Source of the DNA: an uncultured bacterium
GTDB taxonomy: Bacteria > Bacillota_I > Bacilli_A > RF39 > UBA660
Direction: 5' to 3'
NCBI GenBank assembly: GCA_948433885.1
Contig: CAOJEC010000002.1
Span: 8,976 to 72,975 of the forward strand
DNA: 64,000 nt
In this document: positions 16,138 through 59,180 of the stretch, one piece after another
How positions within the stretch are numbered: position 1 is the stretch's first letter
How the letters are laid out: every line of letters starts with the position of its first letter
The notes under the pieces: model-generated
Seen by the model: only the letters and a program-made list of their open reading frames with translations
The model's database searches: none
Told to the model about the DNA's origin: nothing
Position numbers and translations under genes: made by a program

Positions 16138-16167
16138 AATAAACCTCCTAAATATTTCGCAAATATT

Positions 16168-16196
16168 ATTCTATCATTTACGTAACATTTTGTCAA
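16168..16196 (-). promoter_or_regulatory. Sigma-A-type promoter of the giant surface-protein gene
   Basis: On the minus strand, TTGACA (rc of 16191-16196), an exact 17-nt spacer, then TAGAAT (rc of 16168-16173), about 30 nt upstream of the ATG. Confidence 0.55.
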
Positions 16197-33103: not shown

Positions 33104-33219
33104 ATTTCCACATCTTGTTGATAAATCTTCCACATTGTAGAAAATGCAAAATTGTGGAAACTGTGGATAAAAACTTTTTTTCAATTAAACTCTACAAATT
33201 TTAACACAAGTTATCCACA
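33104..33219. promoter_or_regulatory. oriC part 1: DnaA-box cluster upstream of dnaA
   Basis: Perfect boxes TGTGGATAA at 33162-33170 and TTATCCACA at 33211-33219. Near-boxes at 33104-33112 (ATTTCCACA), about 33128-33136 (TCTTCCACA) and 33153-33161 (TGTGGAAAC). Confidence 0.8.
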
Positions 33220-33324
33220 AAATTTGTCGAAAATTGTTGTAGATAACTATTTTTTGAAAAATCTATCTTTACCTTTTTTTTATTTTAAGATACAATGAAA
33301 TTACTAGAAACCGGGGTGAGGTTC

Positions 33325-34731: not shown

Positions 34732-34750
34732 ACTGTTGATAAACATGAAG

Positions 34751-34862
34751 TTTTCCACAAGTTTTCTACAGGGTTTAAATTCAATTAAATGTGGACAAAA
34801 GACCACTTTTCCACAAATTCCACAAAACATATAAATAATAATAAATATATAATAAATAAGAA
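34751..34862. promoter_or_regulatory. oriC part 2: DnaA boxes plus an AT-rich unwinding region between dnaA and dnaN
   Basis: TTTTCCACA at 34751-34759 and 34807-34815, TGTGGACAA at 34790-34798 and AATTCCACA at 34816-34824. These are followed by catataaataataataaatatataataaataag, which is nearly 100% AT and contains TAATAATAA. Confidence 0.7.
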
Positions 34863-36134: not shown

Positions 36135-36174
36135 TCGAAATAGTGTATAAGGGTATGGCAAGGAGGTGATATAT

Positions 36175-39771: not shown

Positions 39772-42387
39772 ATGGAAGAAGAAAATAAAGAAAATTTACA
39801 AGAAAATATTCAAACCAATGAAGACGAGCAACTCGTCATCGATCGCACCCCTACAAGAGATAAAATAGATCACAATGATATTGTCGATGAAATCGAGAAT
39901 TCATTTATCAAATACTCTCTAAGTGTCATCACAGCGCGTGCGTTGCCAGACCTTCGAGATGGATTGAAACCAGTTCATAGAAGAATACTTTACTCTATGT
40001 ATGATTCGGGATACACACCAGATAAGCCACATAAAAAATGTGCCCGTATTGTCGGTGACGTCATCGGTAAATACCACCCTCATGGCGATTCATCGATTTA
40101 CGACGCCATGGTTCGTATGGCTCAAGATTTCAGTCTACGTTATATGTTAGTAGACGGTCACGGAAACTTCGGTAATATAAATGGAGATAGTCCCGCAGCT
40201 TATCGTTATACGGAATCTAGAATGGCAAAGATATCTCTCGAAATGCTTCGTGATATAAACAAAAATACTGTCGATTTCGAGGATAATTTCGACGGTCTAG
40301 AGCAAGAACCTAAAGTTCTACCATCTAGATTTCCAAATATCTTAGTTAATGGTACGACAGGTATTGCAGTCGGTATGGCAACCAACATTCCACCACACAA
40401 CTTAGGAGAAGTAATAGACGGATGTATTGCTTATATCGACAACCCTGAAATAGATACGATGGGATTGATGGAATATATTAAAGGACCAGATTTTCCTACA
40501 GGAGCGATAATTCTTGGAAACAGTGGAATACGTAAAGCATACGAAACAGGACGAGGAAGTATAACGATCCGAAGTAATGCTATTATCGAAGAAAAACACG
40601 GTAAAACGTACATCGTTATAGATGAAGTACCTTATGGACTCAATACGAACTCTCTTAAAGAAAAAGTTGCAAATTTAGTACATAATAAAGTCCTAGATGG
40701 AATATCGGATTATCATACAGACTTAAAAAATGGATTGAAAATAACTATCACGCTCAAAAGAGATGCAAATCCTCAAGTCGTATTGAATAATTTGTATAAA
40801 CATACTGAATTTCAAACTACATACGGTATCCTGTTCATAATGTTGGATATGGGTGTACCAAAAACCTTGGGATTAAAAGAAATAATTAGCAAATATATCG
40901 ATCACCAACGAGAAGTTATCATCAGAAGAACGCGATTTGAACTAGAAAAAGCAGAAAAACGTGTTCACATATTGGAAGGTTATAAGATCGCCCTAGACAA
41001 TATCGATGAAGTGATCAAAATAATTAAAGAAGCTGAAAGCGATTCAAATGCAAAAGAAAAATTGATAAAGCGATTTGGATTTACTGAAATTCAAGCGGAT
41101 AGCATCTTGGAATTGAAGTTACGTCGTTTGACAGGATTAGAAAGAGCAAAAATCGAAGAAGAATTGAAAAACTTACTAGCTCTTATCGAAGAATTGAAGA
41201 GCATTCTAGCTTCAGAACAAAAAGTTAATGACATAATTAAAAAAGAATTAACTGAAATAAAAGATAAATACGCAGATGAAAGACGTACTAAGATAGATAT
41301 GACTGCAATCGATTTTATTGAGGATGAATCATTGATACCTGAAGAAAATAGTATGATTACTCTAACAGAAAAGGGATACATCAAGAGACTTGCAGCAGAC
41401 ACTTATAAGACACAAAATCGTGGTGGTGTTGGCGTAAAGGGTATAAGTACAAATGAGGAAGATAATGTAAAATTGATGGTCAATGTATCTACACATGACT
41501 ATATACTTTTCTTTACAAATAAAGGTAAAGTATACCGTATCAAGGGATACGAAATACCAGAGTTCAATAGACAATCGAAAGGCTTGCCGATTATCAATCT
41601 TTTACATATAGAAAAAGACGAAGCAATAAGCTCTATAATAAAAATTGGTAAAGATGAACCAGAACTAAAATACCTGTTATTTGCGACTAAAAAAGGCGTA
41701 GTCAAACGTACGGCCATCGAAGACTTTGAAAATATCAGACAAACCGGTAAGATGAGTATTACTTTAAAAGATGATGATGAACTAATAGCAGTTAAAAAAA
41801 CAACTGGCGAAAACAAAGTTTTACTAGGAAGCACGAACGGACGTATGGTTTTGTTTGATGAATCTGAAATTAGAGTTATGGGTAGAACGGCATCAGGAGT
41901 ACGAGGAATCAATATGCCTGATGGAGAATGTATATGCGCTGACGTTTGTGATATGGACACTAATTTATTGATCGTCACCAAAAAGGGTTACGGAAAACGT
42001 ACATTTGTACAGGAGTTTAGAGAAACACGTCGTGGAAGTAAAGGAGTAAAAGCTCTAAATATAACTGAAAAAAATGGTGGTATAGCTTCATTCAACATTA
42101 TCGACGACGAAAAAGATATTGTTATAATTACGGATTCCGGAATGGTAATCAGATTAGATTCTACGACAATATCTCAACTTGGACGCAACGCCCAAGGTGT
42201 AAGACTGATTAATCTGAAAGATAATCAAATTGTCTCTTCAATTTCTATTGTGGAAAAAATAATGGAGGAAACAGGAAACAAAGAAAATTTAACTGTGGAC
42301 AACTCAATAACTGATAATATTGAAATTGCTGTGGAAAACTCTGAAAAAGAAATTCAAGAAAGTGCTGTGGAAAACGAACAAGAATAA
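39772..42387 (+). CDS. gyrA: DNA gyrase subunit A
   Basis: QRDR-type motif ([17 protein letters not shown]), the catalytic Tyr region (AAYRYTESR) and a beta-pinwheel C-terminal domain. Acidic C-terminal tail. Confidence 0.97.
42249..42374 (+). promoter_or_regulatory. Four co-oriented DnaA-box-like 9-mers inside the last 140 bp of gyrA
   Basis: TGTGGAAAA at 42249-42257, 42330-42338 and 42366-42374. TGTGGACAA at 42294-42302. Confidence 0.5.
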
Positions 42388-42426
42388 AAAAAAATAGGTA
42401 TGAAAAACTCCCTATTCTTTTTTTAT

Positions 42427-42446
42427 ATTATTTCCCGGGAAATAAT
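42427..42446. promoter_or_regulatory. Noc-binding-site (NBS) palindrome 1
   Basis: ATTATTTCCCGGGAAATAAT is a perfect 20-bp palindrome containing the B. subtilis NBS consensus ATTTCCCGGGAAAT. Confidence 0.75.
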
Positions 42447-42464
42447 GGTTGAATCTACCTGCGG

Positions 42465-42504
42465 AAATTTACAATCTTTTGTATATACGAAAGATTGTAA
42501 ATTT
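42465..42504. repeat. Perfect 15-bp inverted repeat with a 10-nt loop
   Basis: AAATTTACAATCTTT - tgtatatacg - AAAGATTGTAAATTT. Confidence 0.8.
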
Positions 42505-42526
42505 AGTACTTGTAAAGAAAATTGGA

Positions 42527-42544
42527 ATGTTACATGTGAAACAT
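42527..42544. promoter_or_regulatory. Degenerate parS-like site within a 36-bp palindrome (42518-42553)
   Basis: ATGTTaCAtGTGaAACAT has 3 mismatches to the local perfect copies. It is flanked by 14-bp arms AAAATTGGAATGTT / AACATTCCAATTTT. Confidence 0.45.
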
Positions 42545-42686
42545 TCCAATTTTAAATTATCATTTAAATATCACCTAATATAAGATACTTCCAGGAAATA
42601 TTATAATAAGAAAATAAAGTAAAAAGTATATATGATCTTTAAAGTTTAAATAACTATAAATACAGATTTAATATTTATATGCATTT

Positions 42687-42704
42687 ATGTTCCACGTGAA
42701 ACAT
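42687..42704. promoter_or_regulatory. parS site a
   Basis: The core TGTTCCACGTGAAACA is identical to the B. subtilis parS consensus. An extra half-site GTGGAACA lies at 42710-42717. Confidence 0.8.
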
Positions 42705-42742
42705 CACAAGTGGAACAAAAAATGATATTTTTAATATTGTAA

Positions 42743-42760
42743 TTATTTCCCGGGAAATAA
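42743..42760. promoter_or_regulatory. NBS palindrome 2
   Basis: TTATTTCCCGGGAAATAA is a perfect 18-bp palindrome. Confidence 0.75.
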
Positions 42761-42785
42761 AAATATAGGTATTTTTCCACAGCAC

Positions 42786-42803
42786 ATGTTCCACGTGGAA
42801 CAT
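42786..42803. promoter_or_regulatory. parS site b
   Basis: ATGTTCCACGTGGAACAT is a perfect 18-bp palindrome. TTTTCCACA lies just upstream at 42773-42781. Confidence 0.8.
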
Positions 42804-42958
42804 TAGATTTTGACATAGTAAAGTTTAGATATAATTAGTCTAAGTAATATTTTATTTAAAATCAAATTCTCAGTTGTATTAAAAATAATTATAAATTTAT
42901 TTTAATACTATTAAGAGTTAAATTGGTTGTACTCTTCTTACTACTTTTCCACAACTAG

Positions 42959-42976
42959 ATGTTCCACGTGGAACAT
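42959..42976. promoter_or_regulatory. parS site c
   Basis: ATGTTCCACGTGGAACAT is perfect. TTTTCCACA lies at 42945-42953. Confidence 0.8.
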
Positions 42977-43140
42977 GATAGTATTAAGTCAACGCTTTGT
43001 TTTTTATTAGCTCATTTCTAGAAAATGCAGCACAAAACCGAATTACTAAGCATCTAGTTAACATTGGTTAAATTAATATAAAATCTTAATGATCATATTG
43101 ATAGTTGAAAATGTTTTTTATAATATTCTTTCCACAACAA

Positions 43141-43160
43141 AATGTTCCACGTGGAACATT
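43141..43160. promoter_or_regulatory. parS site d
   Basis: AATGTTCCACGTGGAACATT is a perfect 20-bp palindrome. CTTTCCACA lies at 43128-43136. Confidence 0.8.
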
Positions 43161-43220
43161 GTATAATACTTGGTAATAAAATTTATAAAACACTTGAATA
43201 TACGTACATTTGTATGCAAC

Positions 43221-43236
43221 TATTTCCCGGGAAATA
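43221..43236. promoter_or_regulatory. NBS palindrome 3
   Basis: TATTTCCCGGGAAATA is a perfect 16-bp palindrome, 8 nt upstream of the ffs -35 element. Confidence 0.75.
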
Positions 43237-43243
43237 ATCCTAC

Positions 43244-43272
43244 TTGAATTTTATAATTTAATATGATAAAAT
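43244..43272 (+). promoter_or_regulatory. Putative promoter of the SRP RNA
   Basis: TTGAAT (43244-43249), a 17-nt spacer, then TAAAAT (43267-43272). This places the start near G43278/79. Confidence 0.5.
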
Positions 43273-43277
43273 TTAAA

Positions 43278-43352
43278 GGCACAACGAACTATTGTCGAAC
43301 CTGGTCAGGATTGGAAAATAGCAGCCATAAGATGAGAATTCGTGTGTGCTTT
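43278..43352 (+). ncRNA. ffs: Small (4.5S-type) signal recognition particle RNA
   Basis: cctGGTCAGGattGGAAaatAGCAGCCataagatgagaattcgtgtgtgc parallels E. coli 4.5S ccaGGUCAGGuccGGAAggaAGCAGCCaaggcagaugacgcgugugcc. It has a GGAA tetraloop, and the closing stem GCACA(A)CGAA / TTCGTGTGTGC has one bulge. The ends are approximate. Confidence 0.8.
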
Positions 43353-43367
43353 TATTTTGGAGGAATT

Positions 43368-43787
43368 ATGGAAAAATATATTTTGGATCGACTCTTCGAA
43401 TTGGCAAATAAATCATTAGAGGAAAATGAGTTTCCAGTAAGTGCAATTGTTTATGACCAAACAGGAATATTAGGTGAAGGTTATAATATAAGGAATTCTA
43501 CCAATAAAACTACCGATCATGCAGAAATAATAGCAATAGAAAATGCTAATAAAAATGTAAAAAATTGGAATTTAGAGAACAAATGTATGGTAGTAACTTT
43601 AGAGCCTTGTGAAATGTGCAAAAGTGTCATTAAAGAAGCACGTCTATCCGAAGTTTACTTTCTCATACCGAGATATAAGTACAAAAAACAATATAAAAAT
43701 ACTACAATAAAACATCTTCCCTTACAGGATGAAAGATTAACATCATATAATCAAAATATAACGACCTTTTTTTCAAATAAACGGTAG
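43368..43787 (+). CDS. tadA: tRNA-specific adenosine deaminase
   Basis: CDA-fold motifs HAE (TTDHAEIIAI) and PCxxC (LEPCEMCKSV). The ATG at 43368 follows GGAGG. The track's upstream extension overlaps the SRP RNA. Confidence 0.9.
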   Translation: MEKYILDRLFELANKSLEENEFPVSAIVYDQTGILGEGYNIRNSTNKTTDHAEIIAIENANKNVKNWNLENKCMVVTLEPCEMCKSVIKEARLSEVYFLIPRYKYKKQYKNTTIKHLPLQDERLTSYNQNITTFFSNKR

Positions 43788-43833
43788 ATTATATATCATC
43801 ATTTTGTTATAATTATATTGGAGATGATTTCAC

Positions 43834-45411
43834 ATGGCATATAAAGTACTCTATAGAAAATATCGACCTAATACATTCGAAAAAATAGTGGGTCAAAAAA
43901 CCATTGTCGAAAATCTTAAAAAAAGTGTCGAAGAAGGATCCTTTTCACACGCTTACATCTTTACAGGTCCCAGAGGTACCGGAAAGACTACTACAGCTAA
44001 AGTTTTAGCAAAATCCCTAATCTGTAGTGACCCTCACGCAGGTGAATCTTGTGATAAATGTGAAAATTGTAAAAACTTTGCGACTATTCCAGACATAATC
44101 GAGATCGATGCGGCATCCAATAATGGCATTAATGAAATTAGAGAATTGAGAAACAATATCACACTGGCTCCTTCTCAAGCAAAATACAAAATTTATATAA
44201 TCGATGAGGTGCACATGTTGTCAGACGGTGCCTTCAACGCATTATTAAAAACTTTAGAAGAACCACCGGCACATGCCATATTCATTTTAGCTACAACAGA
44301 AATATACAAAGTACCCATTACTATTTTATCTCGTTGTCAAAGATACGATTTTAAAAAGATAGATCAGAATGACATGATTGCACATTTAAAAGACATCTGT
44401 AATGATGAAAACATTTCATACGAGGATGGAGTACTAGAAGAAATATTTGAGCTCAGTGAAGGTTGCCTACGAGACGCATTAAGTATTCTAGATCAGTCTT
44501 CTAAATCGGAAAGTAAGATAACATTAGAAGGACTTTTAAAAAACTACAACATGATATCTAATAATGCAGTTAAAGAGCTTCTCACATTAGTAAAAACTGG
44601 TCAAATCGATGATTTGATAAAAAAAATAGAAAGCTACGAGGCAACAGGAATAAATGCTCAAAAAATGCTCAAACGAATGATCAGTTATTTAGAAAAAATG
44701 GCCATTGAAATAAAAACAGGGAAAACTAAAGAGTTTTCTTATAGCGCGATATCTCTTTTGATAAAAGATTTAAATAAATGCTACATAGATGCTAGAATTA
44801 ATGAAAACGTTTTTACAATGATAAAATTGTGTTTTTTGGAAGCAGTCGAATCGCCATTAAAAAGAAAAAACGAACTAAAAGAAGAAAAAACGAGTAAAGA
44901 TGTTAAAAAAGAAGTTATCGAAAAACCACTAGAAGAAAAAGTAAACAAAAAAGAAAAAGAGCAGGATGTCGAACATCAAACTTTAAATCCAATTGATATA
45001 AGAATAAATAACTGCTTTGTAGAGGCAAGCAAGGATCATCTATCCAAAATTACAAATAAATGGAATATATTGACTTCAAAAACGATGCCTGGACTCGAAC
45101 CAAAAGAATACAAACCAGTCGCAGCATCATCAACCTATGCAATATTTACTTCAGAAGAAAATTCGTTGGCTAATTTATTTAACATAAAACAAGAAGAAAT
45201 CGAAAAATCTCTGAAAAAGGAACAAATCGATATAAAAGTTGTCGCAATAACTAATGACGAATGGCAAAAAGAAAAAGAAAAATACAAAAATAATTTAATA
45301 CAAAAGAAAAAATACGAATACATAGAGGAACCACTTCCAAAAGAAGAAAATTCAAAAATAAAGAAAGAAGCTGAAGACCTCTTTAATGAAAAATTGGTCG
45401 AGGTTTCATAG
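43834..45411 (+). CDS. dnaX: DNA polymerase III subunit tau/gamma
   Basis: Walker A (GPRGTGKTT), a Zn module (CDKCENC) and the SRC motif (ILSRCQRYDF). Confidence 0.95.
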   Translation: MAYKVLYRKYRPNTFEKIVGQKTIVENLKKSVEEGSFSHAYIFTGPRGTGKTTTAKVLAKSLICSDPHAGESCDKCENCKNFATIPDIIEIDAASNNGINEIRELRNNITLAPSQAKYKIYIIDEVHMLSDGAFNALLKTLEEPPAHAIFILATTEIYKVPITILSRCQRYDFKKIDQNDMIAHLKDICNDENISYEDGVLEEIFELSEGCLRDALSILDQSSKSESKITLEGLLKNYNMISNNAVKELLTLVKTGQIDDLIKKIESYEATGINAQKMLKRMISYLEKMAIEIKTGKTKEFSYSAISLLIKDLNKCYIDARINENVFTMIKLCFLEAVESPLKRKNELKEEKTSKDVKKEVIEKPLEEKVNKKEKEQDVEHQTLNPIDIRINNCFVEASKDHLSKITNKWNILTSKTMPGLEPKEYKPVAASSTYAIFTSEENSLANLFNIKQEEIEKSLKKEQIDIKVVAITNDEWQKEKEKYKNNLIQKKKYEYIEEPLPKEENSKIKKEAEDLFNEKLVEVS

Positions 45412-45423
45412 GAGGAGAAGAAA

Positions 45424-45720
45424 ATGAACATACAAAATATTATGGCTCAAGCCCAAAAAATGCAAAAAGAAATAACAAAGAAACAGGAAGAAATTTATGC
45501 TATGACCTTCGTCGGAAAATCAGAATGGGTCGATGTATCCATGAATGGTAAAAAAATGGTCATGAAAATCGAAATCAAGTATGATGGAGATATCAATGGA
45601 GAAAAAGAAATGCTCGCTGACATGATAACCATCGCAATAAATGACGCTCACAAGCAAATTGATAAAGAAATCGAGCAAAAATTGGGAGTCTATAGTAAAC
45701 AGCTTGGTGGTTTGATGTGA
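45424..45720 (+). CDS. ybaB: YbaB/EbfC nucleoid-associated protein
   Basis: ~100-aa protein between dnaX and recR, starting MNIQNIMAQAQKMQKEI. Confidence 0.9.
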   Translation: MNIQNIMAQAQKMQKEITKKQEEIYAMTFVGKSEWVDVSMNGKKMVMKIEIKYDGDINGEKEMLADMITIAINDAHKQIDKEIEQKLGVYSKQLGGLM

Positions 45721-46322
45721 TGAACATCTATCCGGAATTACTAGAAACACTGATAGAATACTTCAAAAAATTGCCGGGTATAGGTGAACGAACTGCTGAA
45801 AGATATGCACTCGCTTTGATCAATTTGAACAAAGAAGACCTAAAAGATTTTGCTTCAGCTATCGACAAGATAGATACGACCTTTAAGAAGTGCGAGGAAT
45901 GCGGACATCTCACTGAAAAAAAGATATGTCAAATATGTGAAGACACCAATAGAGATCACAACCTAATTTGTGTAGTCGAAGACTATAAAAGCATCTTTGT
46001 ATTCGAAAAGACAAAAAAATTCGGTGGCATTTATCATGTTTTAGGGGGGCTCATTTCCCCGATAGATGGAATCAATCCCGATGATTTGAATATTTCAAAA
46101 CTTATACAAAGATGTAAGGCTCTAGATAACGTAGAAGTAATAATTGCACTGAGACCAACTATCGAGGGAGATACCACGACGTTGTATCTAAAAAAAGTTT
46201 TAGCTAACCAAAATATAAAAGTAACTAGACTTTCTTATGGCATTCCGATGGGAGCTGAGATCGATTATCTAGACATACTAACACTTGAAAGAGCGTTGTT
46301 CGACCGAAAAGAAGTAGAATAA
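45717..46322 (+). CDS. recR: Recombination protein RecR
   Basis: HhH (LPGIGERTAERYA), a Cys4 zinc finger (CEECGH...CQIC) and a Toprim domain. Confidence 0.95.
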   Translation: MMNIYPELLETLIEYFKKLPGIGERTAERYALALINLNKEDLKDFASAIDKIDTTFKKCEECGHLTEKKICQICEDTNRDHNLICVVEDYKSIFVFEKTKKFGGIYHVLGGLISPIDGINPDDLNISKLIQRCKALDNVEVIIALRPTIEGDTTTLYLKKVLANQNIKVTRLSYGIPMGAEIDYLDILTLERALFDRKEVE

Positions 46323-46348
46323 ATATAGCTAAAAATTCATATTATTAA

Positions 46349-46537
46349 TTGATAGATATGAAAATAATTTTAAAAATAATAAAAAGAACAATATTCGCCT
46401 TAGCCGTATTATATGGATTCAACATTATCATGGAAAGCTTAAAATTGTTCATCCCGTTGAACATATATACCATTTCATCAGTAGCAATATTGGGTTTCCC
46501 AGGTCTATTCATATTAGTAGGGCTTTTGTTGATTTGA
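46349..46537 (+). CDS. bofA: BofA-family pro-sigma-K processing inhibitor
   Basis: IPLNIYTISSVAILGFPGLFILV resembles B. subtilis BofA VPINLVTTAISGILGIPGIAALV. Its position after recR matches B. subtilis. Confidence 0.7.
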   Translation: MIDMKIILKIIKRTIFALAVLYGFNIIMESLKLFIPLNIYTISSVAILGFPGLFILVGLLLI

Positions 46538-46546
46538 GAGGATCTT

Positions 46547-47392
46547 ATGGAAGTAGAAACTGTCATACAAAAATTAAAAAAAGAATTCGATGAGAATATA
46601 AATTCCCATATTTTTTTAGTTGAAACAAATGACATAGAAAAAAGTATATCGGATATAAAAAATCTTTTGAAAGAAATACTGTCTCATGGAGACGAAATTA
46701 TAAAAAACCAAATAGTGAATGAAACATATTTAGAACTCATAATTTTGAGAAGCGAAGGGAAAACTATCAAAACAGATCGGGTATTTGAACTTCAAAGTAG
46801 AATCAAGACCAAACCTGTGTTATCCAATTTCATCGCATATATAATCGCTCCAGCAGAAGATTTAAACGACAGTGCTTCCAATAAATTATTGAAGACTATC
46901 GAGGAACCAAACCCTAATATAATCGGCTTTCTAGTGACTAAAAATGCCGATTTACTTCTTCCAACTATCAAGTCCCGCTGTGAAAATATAACACTTTTAT
47001 ATGATCAATCTGAAAATTGCATAGAATTAAATGCTGAAACTGAAGAGACGATTAAAAGTATAATAAGAGCTATAGAAGAAAAAGACCATTTAGCACTGCA
47101 CAAAGCAAAAACTTCCAATAAAAATCTTAAAGAAAATGCACATGTCGTTGAAAATTTGATAAAAGACTATTATAATATGGCCTGCAATCTCAAGACGAAA
47201 GAAAAATTAGATCAAAATCTAGTTGACTTTATAAAAAAGAACAACGATTATAAAACTTTAATTAGAAAAACAAAATACATAAATGGATTGTTGAACAAAT
47301 TGTCAAAAAATATGAACATAGACTTGATGTTAGAAAAAATGTTTTTTGATATGAAAGAAGTGAAAAAAAATGACGATAGTAGCAGGAGTTAA
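46547..47392 (+). CDS. holB: DNA polymerase III delta' subunit
   Basis: ASNKLLKTIEEP and the SRC motif (PTIKSRCENITL). It lies upstream of ricT, as in B. subtilis. Confidence 0.8.
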   Translation: MEVETVIQKLKKEFDENINSHIFLVETNDIEKSISDIKNLLKEILSHGDEIIKNQIVNETYLELIILRSEGKTIKTDRVFELQSRIKTKPVLSNFIAYIIAPAEDLNDSASNKLLKTIEEPNPNIIGFLVTKNADLLLPTIKSRCENITLLYDQSENCIELNAETEETIKSIIRAIEEKDHLALHKAKTSNKNLKENAHVVENLIKDYYNMACNLKTKEKLDQNLVDFIKKNNDYKTLIRKTKYINGLLNKLSKNMNIDLMLEKMFFDMKEVKKNDDSSRS

Positions 47393-48143
47393 ATTTAAAA
47401 ATGGTGGAAAGACTTACAATTTTTCCTCAAATGAAGAATACAAAGTAGGAGATAAAGTTATAGTTGAAACGGAAAGAGGTACACAGCTTGGTCAAATCGA
47501 AACCATAACCGATGACACCGACATTTCCAATAAAAATTTAAAAGAAATTAAATCTCTGGCTACAAAGGCCGATTACAACAAATATTTAAAAAATATCAAA
47601 GATGCTAAAAAGGCATTTGAAGCTACAAAAGAACTTATAAGAAAAAAGAATATCAACATGAATTTAATAGATGCAAGTTATACCTTCGATAGAAAAGTCT
47701 TACTGTTCAACTTTATATCAGATGAAAGAGTCGATTTTAGAGAATTAGTCAAAGAACTAGCCAATAATTATCATACGAGAATCGAATTACATCAAATAGG
47801 AGTACGTGATAAAGCAAAGGAAATAGGAGGACTTGGACTATGTGGACGAACATTATGTTGTAGCAAACAATTCAAAAGTATAGGGTCAGTAAATATCAAC
47901 ATGGTAAAAAACCAAAATATTGCCTTAAATCCAACAAAGATAAATGGAGCATGCGGACGACTTCTTTGTTGTTTTACTTATGAAAATGATATATATGAAC
48001 AAAATAGAAAAGAACTTCCAAAGATAGGAGAACGCATTCAATATGAAAATAAAGAAGTGGTTGTAACTGAAATCGATCCTTTGAATAAAACATACACTGT
48101 TAAACTTGGTGAAAATACTTTTGAAAAGGTGAATGTGGAGTGA
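47370..48143 (+). CDS. ricT: PSP1-domain protein RicT/YaaT
   Basis: The N-terminus IVAGVKFKNGGKTYNF resembles YaaT, and there is a Cys cluster (LCGRTLCC...CGRLLCC). Confidence 0.85.
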   Translation: MTIVAGVKFKNGGKTYNFSSNEEYKVGDKVIVETERGTQLGQIETITDDTDISNKNLKEIKSLATKADYNKYLKNIKDAKKAFEATKELIRKKNINMNLIDASYTFDRKVLLFNFISDERVDFRELVKELANNYHTRIELHQIGVRDKAKEIGGLGLCGRTLCCSKQFKSIGSVNINMVKNQNIALNPTKINGACGRLLCCFTYENDIYEQNRKELPKIGERIQYENKEVVVTEIDPLNKTYTVKLGENTFEKVNVE

Positions 48144-48832
48144 GAGTTTTAAACGATCTTTTCGATTATGGACTAAAAATATATCAGGATAGTGAATACT
48201 TTAAATTCAGTATAGACTCAATCCTACTTGCAGAGTTTGTTAAACTGCATAAAAATGAAAGAATATTGGATATTTGCACAGGCAATGCTCCTATTCCTAT
48301 GATTCTCTCGACCAAAGAAGAGAGCATTCATATCGACGGTGTCGAAATTCAAAAAGAAATTTTTGATTTAGCCCAAAAAAGCATAATAGAGAACGGACTA
48401 GAAAACAAAATACATCTTTTTAATATAGATGCCAAGAGTTTTTTAAATGCTGAAAAATACGATATAGTAACCTGTAATCCACCTTATTTCAAAATAACTG
48501 AAACATCCGAGAAAAATGTAAATATAATAAAAAGAATAGCTAGACATGAGATGTATATAACTTTAGAAGATTGTATAGACGTCGCAAAGAGAAATTTGAA
48601 AGAAACTGGAAGATTGTATATGGTTCACAGAGTCGATAGATTCTTAGACACAATACATCATTTGGAAAACAAGAAATTTGGCATAAGAAAAATAGTATTT
48701 GTTTATACGAAAGATTACAAAGCAGAGTTTTTTTTAATAGAGGCTTCTCGATATAAAAAGAGCGATCCAGTGGTTTATTCGATTTATGCAAACAATAAAA
48801 AATGTTATAAAAATATATTCGAGGAGGCTTGA
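48140..48832 (+). CDS. SAM-dependent tRNA (adenine-N6) methyltransferase, YabB/TrmN6-like
   Basis: NPPY-type motif (VTCNPPYFK). Its position after yaaT matches B. subtilis yabB. Confidence 0.7.
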   Translation: MRVLNDLFDYGLKIYQDSEYFKFSIDSILLAEFVKLHKNERILDICTGNAPIPMILSTKEESIHIDGVEIQKEIFDLAQKSIIENGLENKIHLFNIDAKSFLNAEKYDIVTCNPPYFKITETSEKNVNIIKRIARHEMYITLEDCIDVAKRNLKETGRLYMVHRVDRFLDTIHHLENKKFGIRKIVFVYTKDYKAEFFLIEASRYKKSDPVVYSIYANNKKCYKNIFEEA

Positions 48833-48835
48833 TTT

Positions 48836-49393
48836 ATGAAGTTGATATGTGGCCTTGGTAATCCGGGCAAAACGTATGAAAAAACGAGACACAATGTAGG
48901 ATTTATGATCGTTGATAACTACGTGAATGGAGAAAAATTTAGTAAAAAATTCAATGGCTTGTTTATAGAAAAAACAATAAATGGAGAAAAAGTGATTTTT
49001 TTAAAGCCTCAAAGCTATATGAATCTCTCTGGTGAAGTCGTGAGACCGTTCAAAGACTATTATAAAATAGATTCTAAAGACATACTCATCATTCGTGATG
49101 ATTTGGATCTCGAATTGGGACATGTTCGCATAAAATATGATAGTTCATCAGGTGGAGATAACGGCATAAAATCCATAATAAATCATTTAGGAAACAAAGA
49201 GTTTTATCAATATAAAGTAGGCATATCGAATGATAAAAATCGCGATACCAAAGATTATGTACTAGGAAAATTTTCGAATGAAGAGATGATCATCCTCAAT
49301 GAAATAATCGATAAGTCAAAAGATATTATAGAAGATTTTATTGTTGGAAAAATAACAAATACTAATGACTTCTTTTATGGAGAAAAAAGATGA
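48836..49393 (+). CDS. pth: Peptidyl-tRNA hydrolase
   Basis: N-terminus LICGLGNPGKTYEKTRHNVGF. Confidence 0.95.
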   Translation: MKLICGLGNPGKTYEKTRHNVGFMIVDNYVNGEKFSKKFNGLFIEKTINGEKVIFLKPQSYMNLSGEVVRPFKDYYKIDSKDILIIRDDLDLELGHVRIKYDSSSGGDNGIKSIINHLGNKEFYQYKVGISNDKNRDTKDYVLGKFSNEEMIILNEIIDKSKDIIEDFIVGKITNTNDFFYGEKR

Positions 49394-52300
49394 AAATCAT
49401 CACCGATAAATTTCGTTATAAAAAGGACCACAATGTATACGGTCTTACAAAAGAATTGATCACTCTTTATATATCTAACTATTTTGAAGAAAACGACGAA
49501 AACGTTTTGATTTTGACGAGTACACTTTATGAAGCGAATAATATATATAAAGCACTACAGGCATACACGAGCGATGTTCTGTTTTTTCCGATGGACGATT
49601 TTTTGGCATCAGTTGCGCTCGCTATTTCACCGGATTTGAAAATAAAAAGACTTGAAACATTGGAAAAATTGCTCAACGAAAAGAAAAAACATCTTGTCGT
49701 GACCTCATTGATGGGATATTTAAAATTTTTGCCTAATAAAGAAGAACAACATAGTCTCGTCATAGATACATTGTCACAAAATATTTCCCGGGAAATAATT
49801 TTAAACAAATTAGAAGACTTTGGATACAACCGTGAATCTCTAGTGACGACGACTGGTGAATATGCTGTACGAGGATATATAGTAGACGTATATCCGGTCG
49901 ATCGAGAAAAGCCTGTTCGAATCGAGTTTTTTGGAGATGAAGTCGAATCGATAAAAGAGTTTGACGAAAATACTCAAAGAACTACAACTACGATTGAACG
50001 ATTTGAAATTAAAAAATTTAATGAAACTATATCTACGGACGCCAATTCACTCTTGGACTATATGAATGATCGAACAGTCTTTATAATTGATGAACAAAGA
50101 GTATGCACATCATATAAAAATTTACAAGAAGAGATGCTTGAATACTGTACTAGCAAAGAAATTCCTGTTTCAACAAAATTCATGTTCGGCATGGAAGAGA
50201 TAGCAATAAATAAGGTTTATAAGATCGAAACATTGAACACCATAGAAGATCCAAAATCACTAATTTATGTTTCTAAGGAAATGGAAAATTTTGGAGGTAA
50301 TCTTGAAAATCTAGACACATTTGTTAAAAGGATGCTCGAAAAGAGTACCATTATCTTTGCTTTAGAAAATACAAAACAAATTAACGAAATAAAATCACTT
50401 TTTGATGATGCACTCATTACGAACGAAGAACACATTCATTTGAGAAAGATAAATATCATCGAAAAGAAAATGAACCACGGCTTTGCATTTGAAAATATCT
50501 TAGTTATCACACCTTATGATATAGACAAAAGCACTCGAACCGATGTCAAATACAAAAACACCATAAAAATAGGCCGTAAAGTTAAAACTTACACAGAACT
50601 TGCCAATGGAGATTATATAGTACATGAACAACATGGAATAGGTATTTACCGTGGTCTCAAAGCTATCAAAAATGGCGAATTCGTAAAAGATTATATCGAA
50701 CTGGAATACGAAGGAAAAGACAAAGTATACCTTCCAATCGATAAAATTGATAGACTTTACAAATACTCTTCGAGTGTCGGAAAGGCACCGAAATTAAACA
50801 AACTAAACAGTACGGCATGGGCCAAGAAGAAAAACGAAACAAGAAAAAGAATCCGCGATATCTCGGGCGAACTTTTAGAACTTTATTCTTCAAGACAAAA
50901 AGTAATCGGGCCTGCATTCGCAGATTTTGACGAAGAAATAGCATTCGCTTTTGATTTTCCTTATGCTTTAACTGACGACCAGGAAAAGACGATAAAAGAA
51001 ATAGACTACGATTTAAAATCGCCAGCTCCGATGGATAGACTACTATGCGGGGATGTGGGTTATGGAAAAACTGAAGTCGCTTTTAGAGCGATGTTCAAAA
51101 CTGTCATAAACGGCTTTCAAGTATCTTATCTATGTCCAACAACAATTTTATCTAAACAACAATATACGAGTGCCTTGGAAAGATTCAAAAGATTCCCCAT
51201 TCGTATAGAACTATTGAATAGGCACATTTCGACAGCCAAAGTAAATAAAATTTTAAAAGAGTTAGCAGAAGGTAAAATAGACATAGTCATTGGAACCCAT
51301 AAATTGTTAAATGACAAAATCGAATATAAAAATTTGGGATTACTAGTGATCGATGAAGAACAAAGATTTGGAGTTTCTCATAAAGAAAAAATTAAAAAGA
51401 TGAAAAATGACATTAACGTCTTGACCTTGTCGGCTACACCTATCCCGAGAACATTGAAAATGGCAATGAGTGGGTTACGAAGTCTATCAGTGCTAGATAC
51501 GCCACCAGTGAATCGCTATCCAATTCAAACTTACGTTATTGAAGAAAATGATCTCATCATGAAGGATGCTATATACAAAGAGATGACTAGATCTGGGCAA
51601 GTGTTCCTACTTATCAATAGAATCGATGAATTATCTTCATACAAGACGAAAATTCAAAAACTTATCCCGGAAGCGAGAATCGTATGTGGACACGGACAAA
51701 TGACCTCTGAAGAATTGAACGATATAATGGAAAGTTTCATTCGAGGAGAACACGACATACTGATATGTACTACTATCATAGAAACAGGCATCGATATTGC
51801 CAATGTCAATACTATAATAATTTTGGATGCCGATCACTTTGGTCTAAGCCAATTGTATCAAATTCGAGGCCGCGTCGGACGAAGTGATAAAATAGCGTAT
51901 GCTTACTTGATGTATAAACCTGCGAGACTATTGACTGAAACGGCAACTAAACGACTAGAGTCTATTAAAGAGTTTACTGAATTGGGAAGTGGATATAAAA
52001 TAGCAATGAGAGACTTGGCCATTCGAGGTGCAGGGGATTTGCTAGGTAGCGAGCAAGCAGGTTTCATAGAGGCAGTAGGACTCGATTTATATACAAAGAT
52101 GGTAAACGAAGAGATGAATCGCTTAGAAGGCAACTTCGTCGAAGAAACAGAAGATTCTACCTCTACCTTCAACACGAATACACATATCGAAGATGAGTAT
52201 GTCGAAGATGAAAGTATAAAAATTGAAATACACAAACTCATAAATACTATCAAAACTAAAACAGACTTATTGAAAGTAAAAAATGAACTGATCGATAGAT

Positions 52301-52608
52301 TTGGACGAATTGACGAAAATATAGAAACGTATATGTATGAAAGATGTGTCGAAGAACTTTTAAAATCTCTCAAAATAAAAAATATTATACAAATTCAAAA
52401 GAAGATTACAGTAGTTCTTCCCGAAGAAATATCAAATCTTATCGATGGGGAAAAGTTGTTTTTACAAAGTTACAACATATGTCCAAAATTTGAGATCAGT
52501 TATAAAAGTAAAGAAATACGAATCACCTTGAACACGAATCTCATAAAAAAGAACTATATCTACTACATTTATGAACTTTTAGATACAATTAATCAACAAA
52601 TAAAATGA
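49390..52608 (+). CDS. mfd: Transcription-repair coupling factor
   Basis: CarD/RID region (HEQHGIG), SF2 helicase motifs (GDVGYGKTEVA, DEEQRFG) and a TRG-like region. Confidence 0.95.
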   Translation: MKIITDKFRYKKDHNVYGLTKELITLYISNYFEENDENVLILTSTLYEANNIYKALQAYTSDVLFFPMDDFLASVALAISPDLKIKRLETLEKLLNEKKKHLVVTSLMGYLKFLPNKEEQHSLVIDTLSQNISREIILNKLEDFGYNRESLVTTTGEYAVRGYIVDVYPVDREKPVRIEFFGDEVESIKEFDENTQRTTTTIERFEIKKFNETISTDANSLLDYMNDRTVFIIDEQRVCTSYKNLQEEMLEYCTSKEIPVSTKFMFGMEEIAINKVYKIETLNTIEDPKSLIYVSKEMENFGGNLENLDTFVKRMLEKSTIIFALENTKQINEIKSLFDDALITNEEHIHLRKINIIEKKMNHGFAFENILVITPYDIDKSTRTDVKYKNTIKIGRKVKTYTELANGDYIVHEQHGIGIYRGLKAIKNGEFVKDYIELEYEGKDKVYLPIDKIDRLYKYSSSVGKAPKLNKLNSTAWAKKKNETRKRIRDISGELLELYSSRQKVIGPAFADFDEEIAFAFDFPYALTDDQEKTIKEIDYDLKSPAPMDRLLCGDVGYGKTEVAFRAMFKTVINGFQVSYLCPTTILSKQQYTSALERFKRFPIRIELLNRHISTAKVNKILKELAEGKIDIVIGTHKLLNDKIEYKNLGLLVIDEEQRFGVSHKEKIKKMKNDINVLTLSATPIPRTLKMAMSGLRSLSVLDTPPVNRYPIQTYVIEENDLIMKDAIYKEMTRSGQVFLLINRIDELSSYKTKIQKLIPEARIVCGHGQMTSEELNDIMESFIRGEHDILICTTIIETGIDIANVNTIIILDADHFGLSQLYQIRGRVGRSDKIAYAYLMYKPARLLTETATKRLESIKEFTELGSGYKIAMRDLAIRGAGDLLGSEQAGFIEAVGLDLYTKMVNEEMNRLEGNFVEETEDSTSTFNTNTHIEDEYVEDESIKIEIHKLINTIKTKTDLLKVKNELIDRFGRIDENIETYMYERCVEELLKSLKIKNIIQIQKKITVVLPEEISNLIDGEKLFLQSYNICPKFEISYKSKEIRITLNTNLIKKNYIYYIYELLDTINQQIK
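49782..49797. promoter_or_regulatory. NBS palindrome 4, inside the mfd coding sequence
   Basis: TATTTCCCGGGAAATA is perfect and encodes ...NISREII... Confidence 0.7.
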
Positions 52609-52643
52609 GTATAAAAAAACCGAATTGATTTAAAATAATACTG

Positions 52644-53165
52644 GTGATAATTTTGGCACAAAATAGTAATATAAGAAGAATAGACGAATTAGGTAGAATT
52701 GTCATACCTAAAGATATAAGAAAAAAACTCCACATAAAGGACAGTGAACCACTAGAAATATTTATCGAAGGTGATGAAATCCACATCAAAAAGTACTCTT
52801 CATTGCCCGACATAGTCGAATATGTAAATTTTCTTTTCGATACAAGTTCTAGAATCACCGGTAACGAATATATTTTGACGACGAGAGAAAAAGTTCTTCT
52901 ATCTACCGACCCAGACTACAAAGAAAAAGCATTACAAGAGGAATTGAAAAAAATGGTTCTCTCGTGTACAGAAATGAAAAATGAACAAATCGAATACTTA
53001 CTAGAAGATTCGATATTGAAAGGCAATGCTAACATCGTACCTATAATAGTCGACAACGATCGTTCAGGTCTTTTGATCGAATATAACAAGGATCGTGCTC
53101 CAGGCAATATGGACACTGTCAAAATATATGCGAACCTGATAGAAAATCGATTAAACTGCTATTGA
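52644..53165 (+). CDS. spoVT: Stage V sporulation protein T (AbrB-type N-domain plus GAF-like C-domain)
   Basis: RRIDELGRIVIPKDIRKKLHIKDSEPLEIF is a SpoVT/AbrB swapped-hairpin motif. The ~173-aa size and the position after mfd match B. subtilis. Confidence 0.85.
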   Translation: MIILAQNSNIRRIDELGRIVIPKDIRKKLHIKDSEPLEIFIEGDEIHIKKYSSLPDIVEYVNFLFDTSSRITGNEYILTTREKVLLSTDPDYKEKALQEELKKMVLSCTEMKNEQIEYLLEDSILKGNANIVPIIVDNDRSGLLIEYNKDRAPGNMDTVKIYANLIENRLNCY

Positions 53166-53197
53166 TAAAAAAAAGATGATGTGTTATCATTGTCATA

Positions 53198-53393
53198 TTG
53201 AACGGCGAAGAAAAGAGTAAATTTTGAGAAGTGCATAGAGAGCTATTGGACGGTGTAAAATAGTGACTAATCGACATTGAACATGGTTTTGGAGTTCAAA
53301 CGTATACCTGCGTTAAAGGATAAAGAGCATGATAATCATGAATTAAGGTGGTACCGCGGGAGTGTTCTCGTCCTTAAATTCATGATTTTTTTA
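53198..53393 (+). promoter_or_regulatory. T-box riboswitch leader (Met specifier) controlling metG
   Basis: The Stem I base is TTGAAC...GTTCAA, with an AGAGAG element. The candidate specifier AUG is at 53283-53285. The T-box sequence AATTAAGGTGGTACCGCGGG is at 53341-53360. The terminator arms are 53335-53348 and 53372-53386, followed by T7. Confidence 0.85.
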
Positions 53394-53413
53394 TTTAGAA
53401 AGAAGGAACTTTT

Positions 53414-54946
53414 ATGGAAAAAAAGTATTACATTACGACCCCAATTTATTATCCATCGGCTAATTTTCACATAGGGCATTGTTACAGTACGATAATCGCC
53501 GACTCACTTGCACGCTATAAAAGACTAGATGGATACGACACTTATTTTTTGACAGGGAGTGATGAACACGGACAAAAAATAGAGAAGAAAGCTGAAGAAG
53601 CAGGTGTTGCACCAAAAGAGTATGTCGATAAAATCGTCGAAAATGCCAAAGATTTATGGAATAGTCTTGGCATAACTTATGATCGTTTCATCAGAACGAC
53701 CGATACTGACCATGTAGAAATAGTTGGAAACATTTTTAAAAAACTCTACGATCAGGATGATATATACAAAGGTACATACAAGGGATTATATTGTACACCG
53801 TGCGAATCTTTTTGGACTGAAACACAAGCCAAAGATGGCAAATGTCCCGACTGTGGACGCGAAGTTCATGAAGTAAGTGAAGAAGCCTATTTTTTAAAAC
53901 TATCAAAATACCAAAAAAGATTAGAAGAATATATCGAAACACATCCGAGCTTCATTCAACCTGAATCTCGTAAAAACGAAATGTTGAATAATTTTATCAA
54001 ACCTGGACTAGAAGACCTGTGTGTGTCTAGAACGAGTTTCAAATGGGGAATCCCAGTAACTTTCGATCCAGAACACGTCGTCTACGTTTGGCTCGATGCT
54101 CTATCTAACTATATTACGGCGTTAGGATATTCGACCGATAAAGATGAAAAATTCAAAAAGTTTTGGCCTGCCGACGTTCACATTGTTGGAAAAGAAATAG
54201 TTCGTTTTCATACGATCATATGGCCTATCATTTTGATGGCTCTCGATTTACCATTACCTGAAAAAGTATTTGGTCATGGGTGGCTCGTTATCGAAGGAAA
54301 CAAGATATCGAAAAGTCTCGGAAATTACAAGGATCCACGAGATTATATCGATAAATATGGAGTAGACCCAGTAAGATACTTCGTGTTAAGAGAAATACCT
54401 TTCGGCAATGATGGAAACTTCTCAGAAGAAGCACTTATCAATAGAACGAATAGCGATCTAGCCAACATTTGGGGTAATCTCGTTAATAGAACAATAGGCA
54501 TGGCCAATAAATATTTCGAAGGACAAATTGAAAACACTGAACAAGTCGAAGATGCTGATAAAGAATTACGAGAAAAATTATGTACTTTAAAAGCGAACAT
54601 TGATGAAAAAATCGATCATTTGCAAGTTTCAAAAGCTTTAGAGGAAATCTTCGAAGTATTGAGATTATCCAATAAATACATAGATGACACTGCCCCTTGG
54701 ATTTTGGCAAAAGATGAGACAAAAAAAACACGTTTACAAACGGTTCTCTACAATCTATTAGAAGCAATTCGTATTGCTGCCATACTTCTCAAAGCGTTTG
54801 TTCCAACAAGTGCTGAGGATGTTTTGAAACAGATCGGCAAAAACCAAGGTGATTTTCAAAATGCAACATACATCGAAAATGGAACATACTCAGTGACAAA
54901 AGAACCGCACCCTCTTTTTCAAAGAATAGAACTCCCTAATGAATAA
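53414..54946 (+). CDS. metG: Methionyl-tRNA synthetase (short form)
   Basis: HIGH (ANFHIGH), a KMSKS variant (KISKS) and a Zn knuckle (CTPCE...CPDCG). Confidence 0.95.
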   Translation: MEKKYYITTPIYYPSANFHIGHCYSTIIADSLARYKRLDGYDTYFLTGSDEHGQKIEKKAEEAGVAPKEYVDKIVENAKDLWNSLGITYDRFIRTTDTDHVEIVGNIFKKLYDQDDIYKGTYKGLYCTPCESFWTETQAKDGKCPDCGREVHEVSEEAYFLKLSKYQKRLEEYIETHPSFIQPESRKNEMLNNFIKPGLEDLCVSRTSFKWGIPVTFDPEHVVYVWLDALSNYITALGYSTDKDEKFKKFWPADVHIVGKEIVRFHTIIWPIILMALDLPLPEKVFGHGWLVIEGNKISKSLGNYKDPRDYIDKYGVDPVRYFVLREIPFGNDGNFSEEALINRTNSDLANIWGNLVNRTIGMANKYFEGQIENTEQVEDADKELREKLCTLKANIDEKIDHLQVSKALEEIFEVLRLSNKYIDDTAPWILAKDETKKTRLQTVLYNLLEAIRIAAILLKAFVPTSAEDVLKQIGKNQGDFQNATYIENGTYSVTKEPHPLFQRIELPNE

Positions 54947-54970
54947 AGATATCTTCGTAGATATCTTTTT
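54945..54970 (+). terminator. metG terminator
   Basis: 10-bp stem AAAGATATCT / AGATATCTTT with a 4-nt loop, followed by a T-run. Confidence 0.7.
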
Positions 54971-54972
54971 AA

Positions 54973-54992
54973 ATTATTTCCCGGGAAATAAT
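54973..54992. promoter_or_regulatory. NBS palindrome 5
   Basis: ATTATTTCCCGGGAAATAAT is a perfect 20-bp palindrome identical to copy 1. Confidence 0.75.
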
Positions 54993-58829: not shown

Positions 58830-59124
58830 TTTGATTTACTGTTTTTATTGAAGATTTAAAACGTGGATAAAACATAATAAACTGTAACCTGCGTTTTTTT
58901 ATGTCCAAATATAATAAAATTTAAACAGCTTTTTTACTGAACTATTATTTTCGAAATTGCTATGTATTTTCGACAAAACACTATTTTTTGTCTCCTATAC
59001 AGGCAAAAGTGTACACAGTATAGTAAATCTTACGTAAATTAAAACGTAAATTGTTGCGACAACTTATGCTTTGCGGTATATTAATAGTGGCCTAACAAAA
59101 GAGACCACAATGATCGATTAGATA

Positions 59125-59152
59125 TTGCAATATTTTAAAAATATGGTATAAT
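59125..59152 (+). promoter_or_regulatory. Sigma-A promoter of the 1,581-aa gene
   Basis: TTGCAA (59125-59130), a 16-nt spacer, then TATAAT (59147-59152) preceded by an extended -10 TG element (TGgTATAAT). Confidence 0.55.
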
Positions 59153-59180
59153 ATCCAACCGAAAAAGGGGAAGTATTAAA

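Follow-up and report, generated by a model that had tools for sequence, protein, structure and literature searches.

The 64-kb stretch of contig CAOJEC010000002.1 analysed here (the window, by which we mean the whole stretch at its full length) covers the replication origin of a low-GC Firmicute, a member of an uncultured gut lineage of Bacilli that is represented by metagenomes only, and our subject is the spacer that separates gyrA from ffs, the gene for the small signal recognition particle (SRP) RNA. In this spacer, copies of parS, the site of ParB, are interleaved with perfect copies of the Noc-binding site (NBS), and the same window encodes a ParB-family protein of the Noc lineage. We lean, with modest confidence, towards the view that the spacer is a composite centromere, in which ParB would load at parS while a Noc paralogue devoid of a membrane anchor loads side by side with it at NBS. 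Noc is generally seen as a membrane-tethering, chromosome-wide inhibitor of division and ParB as the clamp of the centromere, their sites and their roles being held separate. Centromeres with clustered parS are already known; what appears to be new is the interleaving of NBS and the existence of Noc homologues without the membrane-targeting helix. In the searchable literature we came upon no account of such an interleaving, which agrees with the first-pass annotation of this DNA in treating the arrangement as undescribed, and none of natural Noc homologues that lack the helix.

Noc-binding sites interleaved with a parS array

The 16-bp palindrome TATTTCCCGGGAAATA, with its 14-bp core ATTTCCCGGGAAAT, is the published NBS (PMC7383237, PMC8429893). 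It is present in exactly five exact copies in the 64-kb window, where shuffled sequences give an expectation of 0.01, and no further matches exist there at up to two mismatches. The first-pass annotation had described five such palindromes as perfect over 16-20 bp, and so they are: the positions that it gave as 42427, 42743 and 54973 are the starts of longer palindromes of 18-20 bp, such as ATTATTTCCCGGGAAATAAT, that enclose the NBS. All five copies fall within 19.6% of the window (scan-statistic p ~0.006). Their local density, which had been put above that of B. subtilis, indeed far exceeds both the ~70 NBS per 4.2 Mb of that species (PMC4331003) and the 41 Noc loci of S. aureus (PMC5540599).

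The 16-bp palindrome TGTTNCACGTGAAACA, which near oriC marks a parS centromere, is found at five sites between 42528 and 43158. Together with three of the NBS, these sites occupy the gyrA-ffs spacer in the order NBS, parS, parS, NBS, parS, parS, parS, NBS, exactly the alternation reported earlier. Centre-to-centre distances between NBS and parS in the spacer are 43-99 bp, and the two kinds of site differ by two bases per half-site. The array, its boundaries and the two outlying NBS are as follows.

39772..42387 (plus strand): gyrA, the left boundary of the array
42388..43270: gyrA-ffs spacer, 883 bp, ~28% GC, with five parS and three NBS
42429..42444: NBS1, exact TATTTCCCGGGAAATA, in a 20-bp palindrome from 42427; 3 nt past the terminator-like hairpin and T-run of gyrA
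42528..42543: parS1, TGTTACATGTGAAACA, one mismatch, within a 36-bp imperfect palindrome (42518-42553)
42688..42703: parS2, TGTTCCACGTGAAACA
42744..42759: NBS2, exact; centre-to-centre 56 bp to parS2 and 43 bp to parS3
42787..42802: parS3, TGTTCCACGTGGAACA, with TTTTCCACA before it at 42773-42781
42960..42975: parS4, TGTTCCACGTGGAACA, with TTTTCCACA before it at 42945-42953
43143..43158: parS5, TGTTCCACGTGGAACA, with CTTTCCACA before it at 43130-43138
43221..43236: NBS3, exact; 7 nt between its end and the -35 match of ffs (TTGAAT, 43244-43249)
43271..43360 (plus strand): ffs, the small SRP RNA, the right boundary of the array
49782..49797: NBS4, exact; inside mfd, codons 131-136 (N-I-S-R-E-I)
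54975..54990: NBS5, exact, in a 20-bp palindrome from 54973; 4 nt past the metG terminator (hairpin and T-run)

Tandem Repeats Finder reports no array in the window spacer, whose copies are dispersed, unlike those of three relatives described below (L022, L032 and L096). The promoter match that precedes ffs, TTGAAT-17-TAAAAT, lies downstream of NBS3.

Other inverted and repeated motifs share the spacer with these sites. A 40-bp near-perfect palindrome (AAATTTACAATCTTTTGTAT/ATACGAAAGATTGTAAATTT) occupies 42465-42504; this element and the 36-bp palindrome around parS1 show no more than partial conservation in the relative L174. The DnaA-box-like motif TTTTCCACA or CTTTCCACA stands 6-7 nt upstream of parS3, parS4 and parS5, and the same motif stands 2-3 nt from parS in L174, the motif being conserved and its spacing not. 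Four further DnaA-box-like motifs of the form TGTGGAAAA occur in the last 140 nt of gyrA (42249-42374, minus strand). These motifs may make the region a cluster of DnaA boxes as well, or else the motif may be an additional half-site of parS (TTCCAC).

A Noc-lineage protein without the membrane-targeting helix

The sole ParB-family gene of the window stands at the following position.

25649..26818 (minus strand): ParB-family gene of the Noc lineage, 389 amino acids, directly downstream of rsmG/gidB and 15.6 kb from the sites

It is preceded by gidB, and the next gene, divergently oriented, encodes a penicillin-binding protein (PBP), with no soj or spo0J following. The product combines the N-terminal cytidine triphosphate (CTP)-binding domain of ParB with a ParB-type helix-turn-helix domain (PF02195, 1.8e-35; PF17762, 2.4e-32), and its best matches in the PDB are Noc (7nfu, 1.8e-55) as against Spo0J (6sdk, 4e-51). 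The motifs GERRYKA and ENIQR are retained and align with the CTP-pocket motifs of Noc. The C-terminus too is of the Noc type, its last 47 residues matching positions 209-255 of the 255 in TIGR04285, the NCBIfam model for Noc (E = 2.4e-5). The score against this model is 291.4 bits, under the curated cut-off of 315, as are those of the orthologues P0091 (276) and P0114 (266). Between the DNA-binding and C-terminal domains runs a low-complexity linker of ~150 residues (about 200-350), which reaches up to ~280 residues in homologues.

Specificity for parS or NBS depends on four positions, which are R173/T179/A184/G201 in ParB and Q173/K179/K184/R201 in Noc, a lysine at either 179 or 184 being enough as the permissive residue (PMC7383237). 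The window protein reads Q-K-N-R at positions 173/179/184/201, matching three of the four Noc residues with an N at 184, and the same QKNR signature recurs in 112 of 117 scored homologues. Neither QKNR nor RKNG, a signature of one of the orthologues below, appears among the measured variants in the accessible part of the PMC7383237 supplements. From these residues the protein is a predicted NBS binder; the palindrome, earlier taken to contain the published NBS, does contain it, and the genome supplies a likely cognate protein of the Noc lineage with NBS-type residues.

Positional orthologues, that is, the products of genes placed between gidB and the PBP gene (gidB-X-PBP), mostly have QKNR, with QRNR, QKSR, RKNG (of the parS type), KKQG and LKKR as further signatures. 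Three of them were recorded individually.

L087 4681-5679: P0091, RKNG
L179 1-696: P0114, KKQG
P0116: recorded alongside P0091 and P0114, with LKKR as the third signature listed

The contigs of the RKNG species (P0091) end at mnmE; the DnaN protein P0287, tried as a lead to a further contig of that species, was rejected as belonging to another lineage, one with KKQG.

At its N-terminus, the window protein begins where Noc residue 23-25 aligns (its residue 3 corresponds to Noc residue 25), and the reading frame is closed by a stop ten codons before the ATG. An N-terminal extension or amphipathic helix is found in none of the 120 closest homologues (0/120), and the helix alpha2 described in PMC8429893 is absent from the window protein. 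Noc function requires this amphipathic helix, and Adams et al. predicted it in every Noc homologue that they looked at (PMC4331003). Its sequence thus sets the window protein apart from canonical Noc, the score being below the curated level and the membrane-targeting helix missing.

Co-localization of NBS and parS across the clade

Relatives were gathered by a DnaX-anchored scan of species-representative genomes and metagenomes (~25 loci), supplemented by a DnaN-anchored set; the metagenome part of the DnaX-anchored scan returned no close relatives. All relatives share the gene order dnaA-dnaN-comK-recF-gyrB-gyrA-spacer-ffs-tadA-dnaX...mfd...metG. Every one of their loci has 2-10 parS in the gyrA-dnaX interval, and many have NBS there too. 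With the window and its relatives, the distribution of NBS could be read over ~600 kb around oriC, from many genomes; pooled over 27 loci, the densities are as follows.

Left of the gyrA end (includes oriC), 333 kb: NBS 0.009/kb, parS 0/kb
gyrA-dnaX spacer, 31 kb: NBS 0.92/kb, parS 3.8/kb
~11 kb rightwards from the dnaX start, 243 kb: NBS 0.091/kb, parS 0.058/kb

A parS lies within 65 bp of 30 of the 63 NBS, and in several relatives the two have become parts of one repeated unit. L022, a complete 1.5-Mb metagenome-assembled genome, carries six units of 125 bp, in each of which a single parS and a single NBS are separated by 58 bp; L096 has tandem parS-plus-NBS units of 119 bp, and L032 has seven such units of 62 bp, in which the site centres are 26 bp apart. 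In L012, the arrangement is parS-NBS-parS with gaps of 10-11 bp. The close relative L174, whose DnaN is 91% identical to that of the window, has six NBS and six parS. Taken together, these comparisons suggest that wherever the Noc-like gene is present, NBS are placed in or just to the right of the parS cluster and are often co-amplified with parS.

The relatives also bear on two points of the first-pass annotation. It had emphasized that the NBS stand at gene boundaries, behind terminators and before the ffs -35 element; these positions hold in the window, but the emphasis does not carry over to the relatives, in which the site nearest ffs is either an NBS or a parS at variable distance, and in some of which the array lies between ffs and tadA or inside dnaX. 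It had also concluded that two paralogous clamps would load close to each other. The interleaving on which this rested recurs throughout the clade, whereas the protein at hand departs from canonical Noc and the ParB partner is itself deduced.

Conservation of the sites as DNA

The array recurs in assemblies of this species that come from other samples, among them L183, which is 99.7% identical; an assembly artefact is ruled out, five independent assemblies having the same array. L182, L185 and L187, which are 95-97% identical, preserve each of the three NBS without a mismatch and contain one parS more. This sixth parS comes from an insertion of ~100 bp in the spacer (~18190-18282 in L182; also in L185 and L187), and it shows that parS copy number changes within the species. 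Between strains, a single substitution was found in 224 aligned site positions as against 42 in 1225 positions of the rest of the spacer, and that one falls on the tolerated N position of parS4.

The sites within and behind coding sequences are informative in another way. NBS4 uses the rare codons TCC and CGG, the latter accounting for 2 of 307 Arg codons sampled, and its 16-mer recurs unchanged, at an equal codon offset, in L007, whose Mfd is 69% identical and whose neighbouring codons differ. Other relatives have peptides similar to N-I-S-R-E-I in Mfd without an NBS. NBS5 is likewise conserved in L007 at the same offset. A further intragenic location is the variable linker of DnaX, ~1020-1190 nt into dnaX, which holds an NBS in L008, L012, L013, L090, L093 and L094 and a parS in L016, L020, L095 and L033; the window's own dnaX has neither. 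The NBS in dnaX are read in two frames, as N-I-S-R-E-I or Y-F-P-G-N-N, and the parS encode N-V-S/P-R-E/G-T in the frame of the first of these. Since the N-I-S-R-E-I and N-V-S-R-E-T forms share a frame, NBS and parS are interconvertible by two synonymous and two conservative changes. Judged by these alignments, the NBS and parS sites are under selection as DNA.

An open reading frame (ORF) of 43-47 amino acids is called across parS2-NBS2-parS3 (L182 17887-18030; L183 17006-17137; ~42675-42820 of the window, minus strand). Pfam gives no hit for this ORF, which is probably spurious.

Co-occurrence of the sites with the Noc-like gene

At least one NBS and a QKNR protein encoded after gidB occur together in the window, L174, L175 and L176. 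A subclade consisting of L170/L171, L177 and L178 retains 5-8 perfect parS, and in these loci no NBS is found even at two mismatches. Here the gene after gidB encodes an N/Q-rich protein of 383-480 amino acids that has no ParB domain or Pfam hit, its C-terminus lying outside the read sequence.

L170 1-164 (minus strand): N/Q-rich gene at the position of the Noc-like gene
L177 1-259 (minus strand): the same
L178 1-890 (minus strand): the same

This N/Q-rich protein may have replaced the Noc-like one without being related to it, or may be what is left of the linker region of the latter. L179, with its KKQG orthologue, has three parS and no NBS in the readable part of the spacer. The correlation between gene and sites is based on eight lineages. 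Because parS arrays persist without the Noc-like gene, we infer that a separate ParB that binds parS is encoded elsewhere in these genomes, and it is this protein that we take to be the second clamp. A search for Soj homologues in the window and in the loci of the clade was negative.

A proposed composite centromere and its alternatives

We propose that the five palindromes are binding sites of the product of 25649-26818 and that three of them have been built into a five-copy parS centromere. The gyrA-ffs spacer would then be the centromere of this clade, where ParB, encoded elsewhere, nucleates on parS and its paralogue of the Noc lineage on NBS. Homology suggests that each of the two would be a CTP-dependent clamp that, once loaded, slides over a few kilobases, and with loading sites 25-100 bp apart, both clamps would come to occupy the same DNA. 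Since the Noc-like protein has no membrane helix, chromosome-wide tethering of DNA to the membrane is unlikely; the NBS are concentrated at the parS array and immediately to the right of it, which points instead to an origin-proximal, ParB-like role of the protein, in a nucleoprotein complex either mixed with that of ParB or abutting on it. More speculatively, the long disordered linker could aid self-association. The output of such a mixed complex might be origin organization, segregation or SMC loading. All four elements of this proposal, namely NBS binding, clamp behaviour with CTP, the ParB partner and the biological output, are predictions, those on function being drawn from homology.

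Several observations weigh against it. Searches with tblastn of the window and ~190 loci detected no ParB or ParA of the clade other than the Noc-like gene. The spacing between NBS and parS is variable, ranging from 21 to 122 bp, which speaks against a precise protein-protein architecture. The number of NBS in the spacer ranges from 0 to 7 among gene-bearing genomes, so that co-location is frequent and not obligatory; L176 has a QKNR protein and no NBS in its spacer at all. Moreover, a Bacillus-like scatter of NBS over the whole chromosome may be compatible with the ~600 kb of oriC-proximal sequence covered. As for L176 itself, its sole NBS in 21 kb stands left of oriC, at 6055, in the interval that separates jag from mnmE.

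A first alternative is ordinary nucleoid occlusion, which we consider unlikely but the most serious contender. It holds that the NBS belong to a chromosome-wide set enriched towards the origin, as that of B. subtilis or S. aureus is, that the protein still inhibits division over the nucleoid and reaches the divisome or the membrane without an N-terminal helix, and that the proximity of parS is incidental, a long AT-rich spacer being one of the few places tolerant of insertions. Such an explanation accords with a gene in the canonical noc position after gidB, with NBS that lie kilobases from any parS (NBS4, NBS5 and the site at 6055 in L176) and with the one gene-bearing genome that lacks spacer NBS. 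It is hard to square with the absence, across the Noc-like homologues, of a helix that Noc function needs (PMC4331003), with an NBS density in the spacer ~100-fold above that of the 333 kb to the left, and with the amplification of parS and NBS as single tandem units in several lineages.

Quite unlikely, in our judgement, is a role of Noc-like dimers or clamps at NBS as boundaries or regulators, acting either on ParB, as roadblocks that confine its spreading and spare gyrA, ffs and dnaX, or on DnaA and initiation. The bracketing of the whole parS array by NBS1 and NBS3 in the window, and the presence of NBS at array edges in L091, L093 and L116 also, fit the first version; the DnaA-box-like TTTTCCACA beside parS3-5, conserved in L174, and the restraint of replication initiation by S. 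aureus Noc (PMC5540599) fit the second. However, in L022, L032 and L096 the NBS alternate with every parS and do not bracket the array, the site nearest the ffs promoter may be either an NBS or a parS, and more distant relatives are without the DnaA-box-like motifs. A general explanation of the NBS as an operator of ffs was rejected on similar grounds, the promoter-proximal site being of either kind, its distance varying and arrays being at times downstream of ffs.

A single Noc-like protein nucleating on both parS and NBS, with no separate ParB, appears very improbable. It would account for the presence of just one ParB-family gene and no ParA in 64 kb around oriC; dual-specificity variants did emerge from mutational screens (PMC7383237), and the RKNG and KKQG positional orthologues indicate that specificity is plastic. 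Against this stand the perfect, amplified parS arrays of lineages with no ParB-domain gene after gidB, the combination of Q173 and R201, which belongs to the NBS-specific class, dual binders mostly having T or S at 201 (PMC7383237), and the failure of B. subtilis Noc to load on parS DNA (PMC8429893).

That the palindrome has nothing to do with Noc, being a terminator repeat, a CCCGGG target of restriction-modification or an operator for some other regulator, is scarcely credible: although NBS1 and NBS5 follow terminators and CCCGGG occurs five times in 64 kb, each time inside an NBS, conservation extends over 16-20 bp and not 6, and the sites vanish in lineages without the Noc-like gene. The absence of CCCGGG elsewhere says little, because just ~1.5 copies are expected from base composition, and a restriction site or chance CCCGGG is ruled out by the conserved 16-20 bp and their tracking of the Noc-like gene. 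The terminator-associated repeat, which the first-pass annotation had named as one outcome that would overturn its view, is ruled out as well: the palindrome by itself forms a weak fold (~-3.6 kcal/mol, z ~0) and lacks a T-run of its own, NBS2 stands in mid-spacer and NBS4 is intragenic, in mfd.

Returning to the composite centromere, a bolder form of it is that the clade preserves, or has re-created, an intermediate of the neofunctionalization of ParB to Noc, with two paralogous clamps forming one mixed partition complex; we think this unlikely, if worth stating. The intermediate would be a clamp of the Noc lineage that reads NBS, has no membrane anchor and still has its sites in the centromere. 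In it, parS and NBS would interconvert in situ, as the N-V-S-R-E-T and N-I-S-R-E-I forms in dnaX and the occurrence of either type next to ffs might be taken to indicate, and the QKNR, RKNG (P0091) and KKQG (P0114/L179) orthologues would be natural specificity switches.

Relation to known systems

Clustered chromosomal parS centromeres, where ParB-parS complexes and SMC loading come together, are known from Corynebacterium, Caulobacter and Myxococcus. The arrays of this clade resemble them in having multiple perfect parS within ~1 kb, a few kilobases from oriC and at a place conserved in the clade, and in being amplified as tandem units. They differ from them in the interleaving with loading sites of a second ParB paralogue, in the lack of a parAB operon near the origin and in the location of parS inside dnaX in some lineages.

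With the Noc-NBS system of B. subtilis and S. aureus, the likeness lies in an identical 16-bp site, a protein of the ParB/Noc family whose gene directly follows gidB/rsmG, and the presence of Q173, K179, R201 and the CTP-pocket motifs. In contrast to that system, the protein here has neither the N-terminal amphipathic helix nor helix alpha2, and so resembles, as a natural counterpart, the N-terminally truncated Noc that is non-functional for occlusion; it has a Noc score below the cut-off, N for K at 184 and a low-complexity linker of 150-280 residues; its gene has no adjoining soj-spo0J; and the sites lie in or beside the parS cluster, at 0.9/kb, where those of the known system are scattered at ~0.015/kb. 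The Noc of S. aureus that regulates initiation (PMC5540599) is comparable in that sites of a Noc-family protein come very close to oriC and to DnaA-box-like motifs. In S. aureus, however, Noc keeps its helix and gives minor, non-canonical peaks at the origin, whereas here perfect NBS are arrayed with parS.

The four positions that vary naturally among the orthologues of this clade are the same as those varied in the engineered ParB-to-Noc intermediates of Jalal et al. (2020, PMC7383237), which were library mutants of Caulobacter ParB, while the present variants are natural and are known from genome sequence alone. If the composite centromere is real, these genomes would offer natural pairs, both of proteins (QKNR, RKNG, KKQG) and of sites (parS or NBS at homologous positions), for studying how specificity and sites co-evolve after gene duplication, a question addressed so far with engineered variants only. 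It would further be a naturally occurring case of two paralogous CTP sliding clamps whose loading sites are no more than 25-60 bp apart, raising questions of roadblocks, mixed condensates and cross-talk, and it would imply a function of the Noc family that is independent of membrane binding.

Genomic setting and other features of the window

The genes gyrA, mfd, metG and ffs had been assigned correctly in the first-pass annotation. The remaining landmarks are as follows.

33116..34815: oriC/dnaA region, with DnaA boxes and the GC-skew switch (~33-34 kb)
49390-52608: mfd
53414-54946: metG, with a T-box upstream

The DnaA boxes flank dnaA at 33295-34731, and the array of parS and NBS lies ~8-10 kb to the right of oriC/dnaA. 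To the left of the origin in the window are rnpA, yidC, jag, mnmE, mnmG and rsmG; to its right are dnaN, a comK-like gene, recF, gyrB, gyrA, the spacer, ffs, tadA and dnaX. The spacer between dnaA and dnaN is just 57 bp long (34732-34788), and DnaA-box-like motifs crowd its edges (34734-34815). The ComK-family gene (36166-36642, plus strand) keeps its position between dnaN and recF throughout the clade and serves as a synteny marker.

Both ends of the window are taken up by large ORFs. At the left end, a giant ORF of more than 5390 amino acids (1-16170, minus strand) runs off the sequence and has internal repeats of ~3969 bp, evident from the paired motif hits at 5101/9070 and 5636/9605; towards the right end, a second ORF encodes 1595 amino acids (~59100-63900, plus strand). 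Both products are probably surface proteins.

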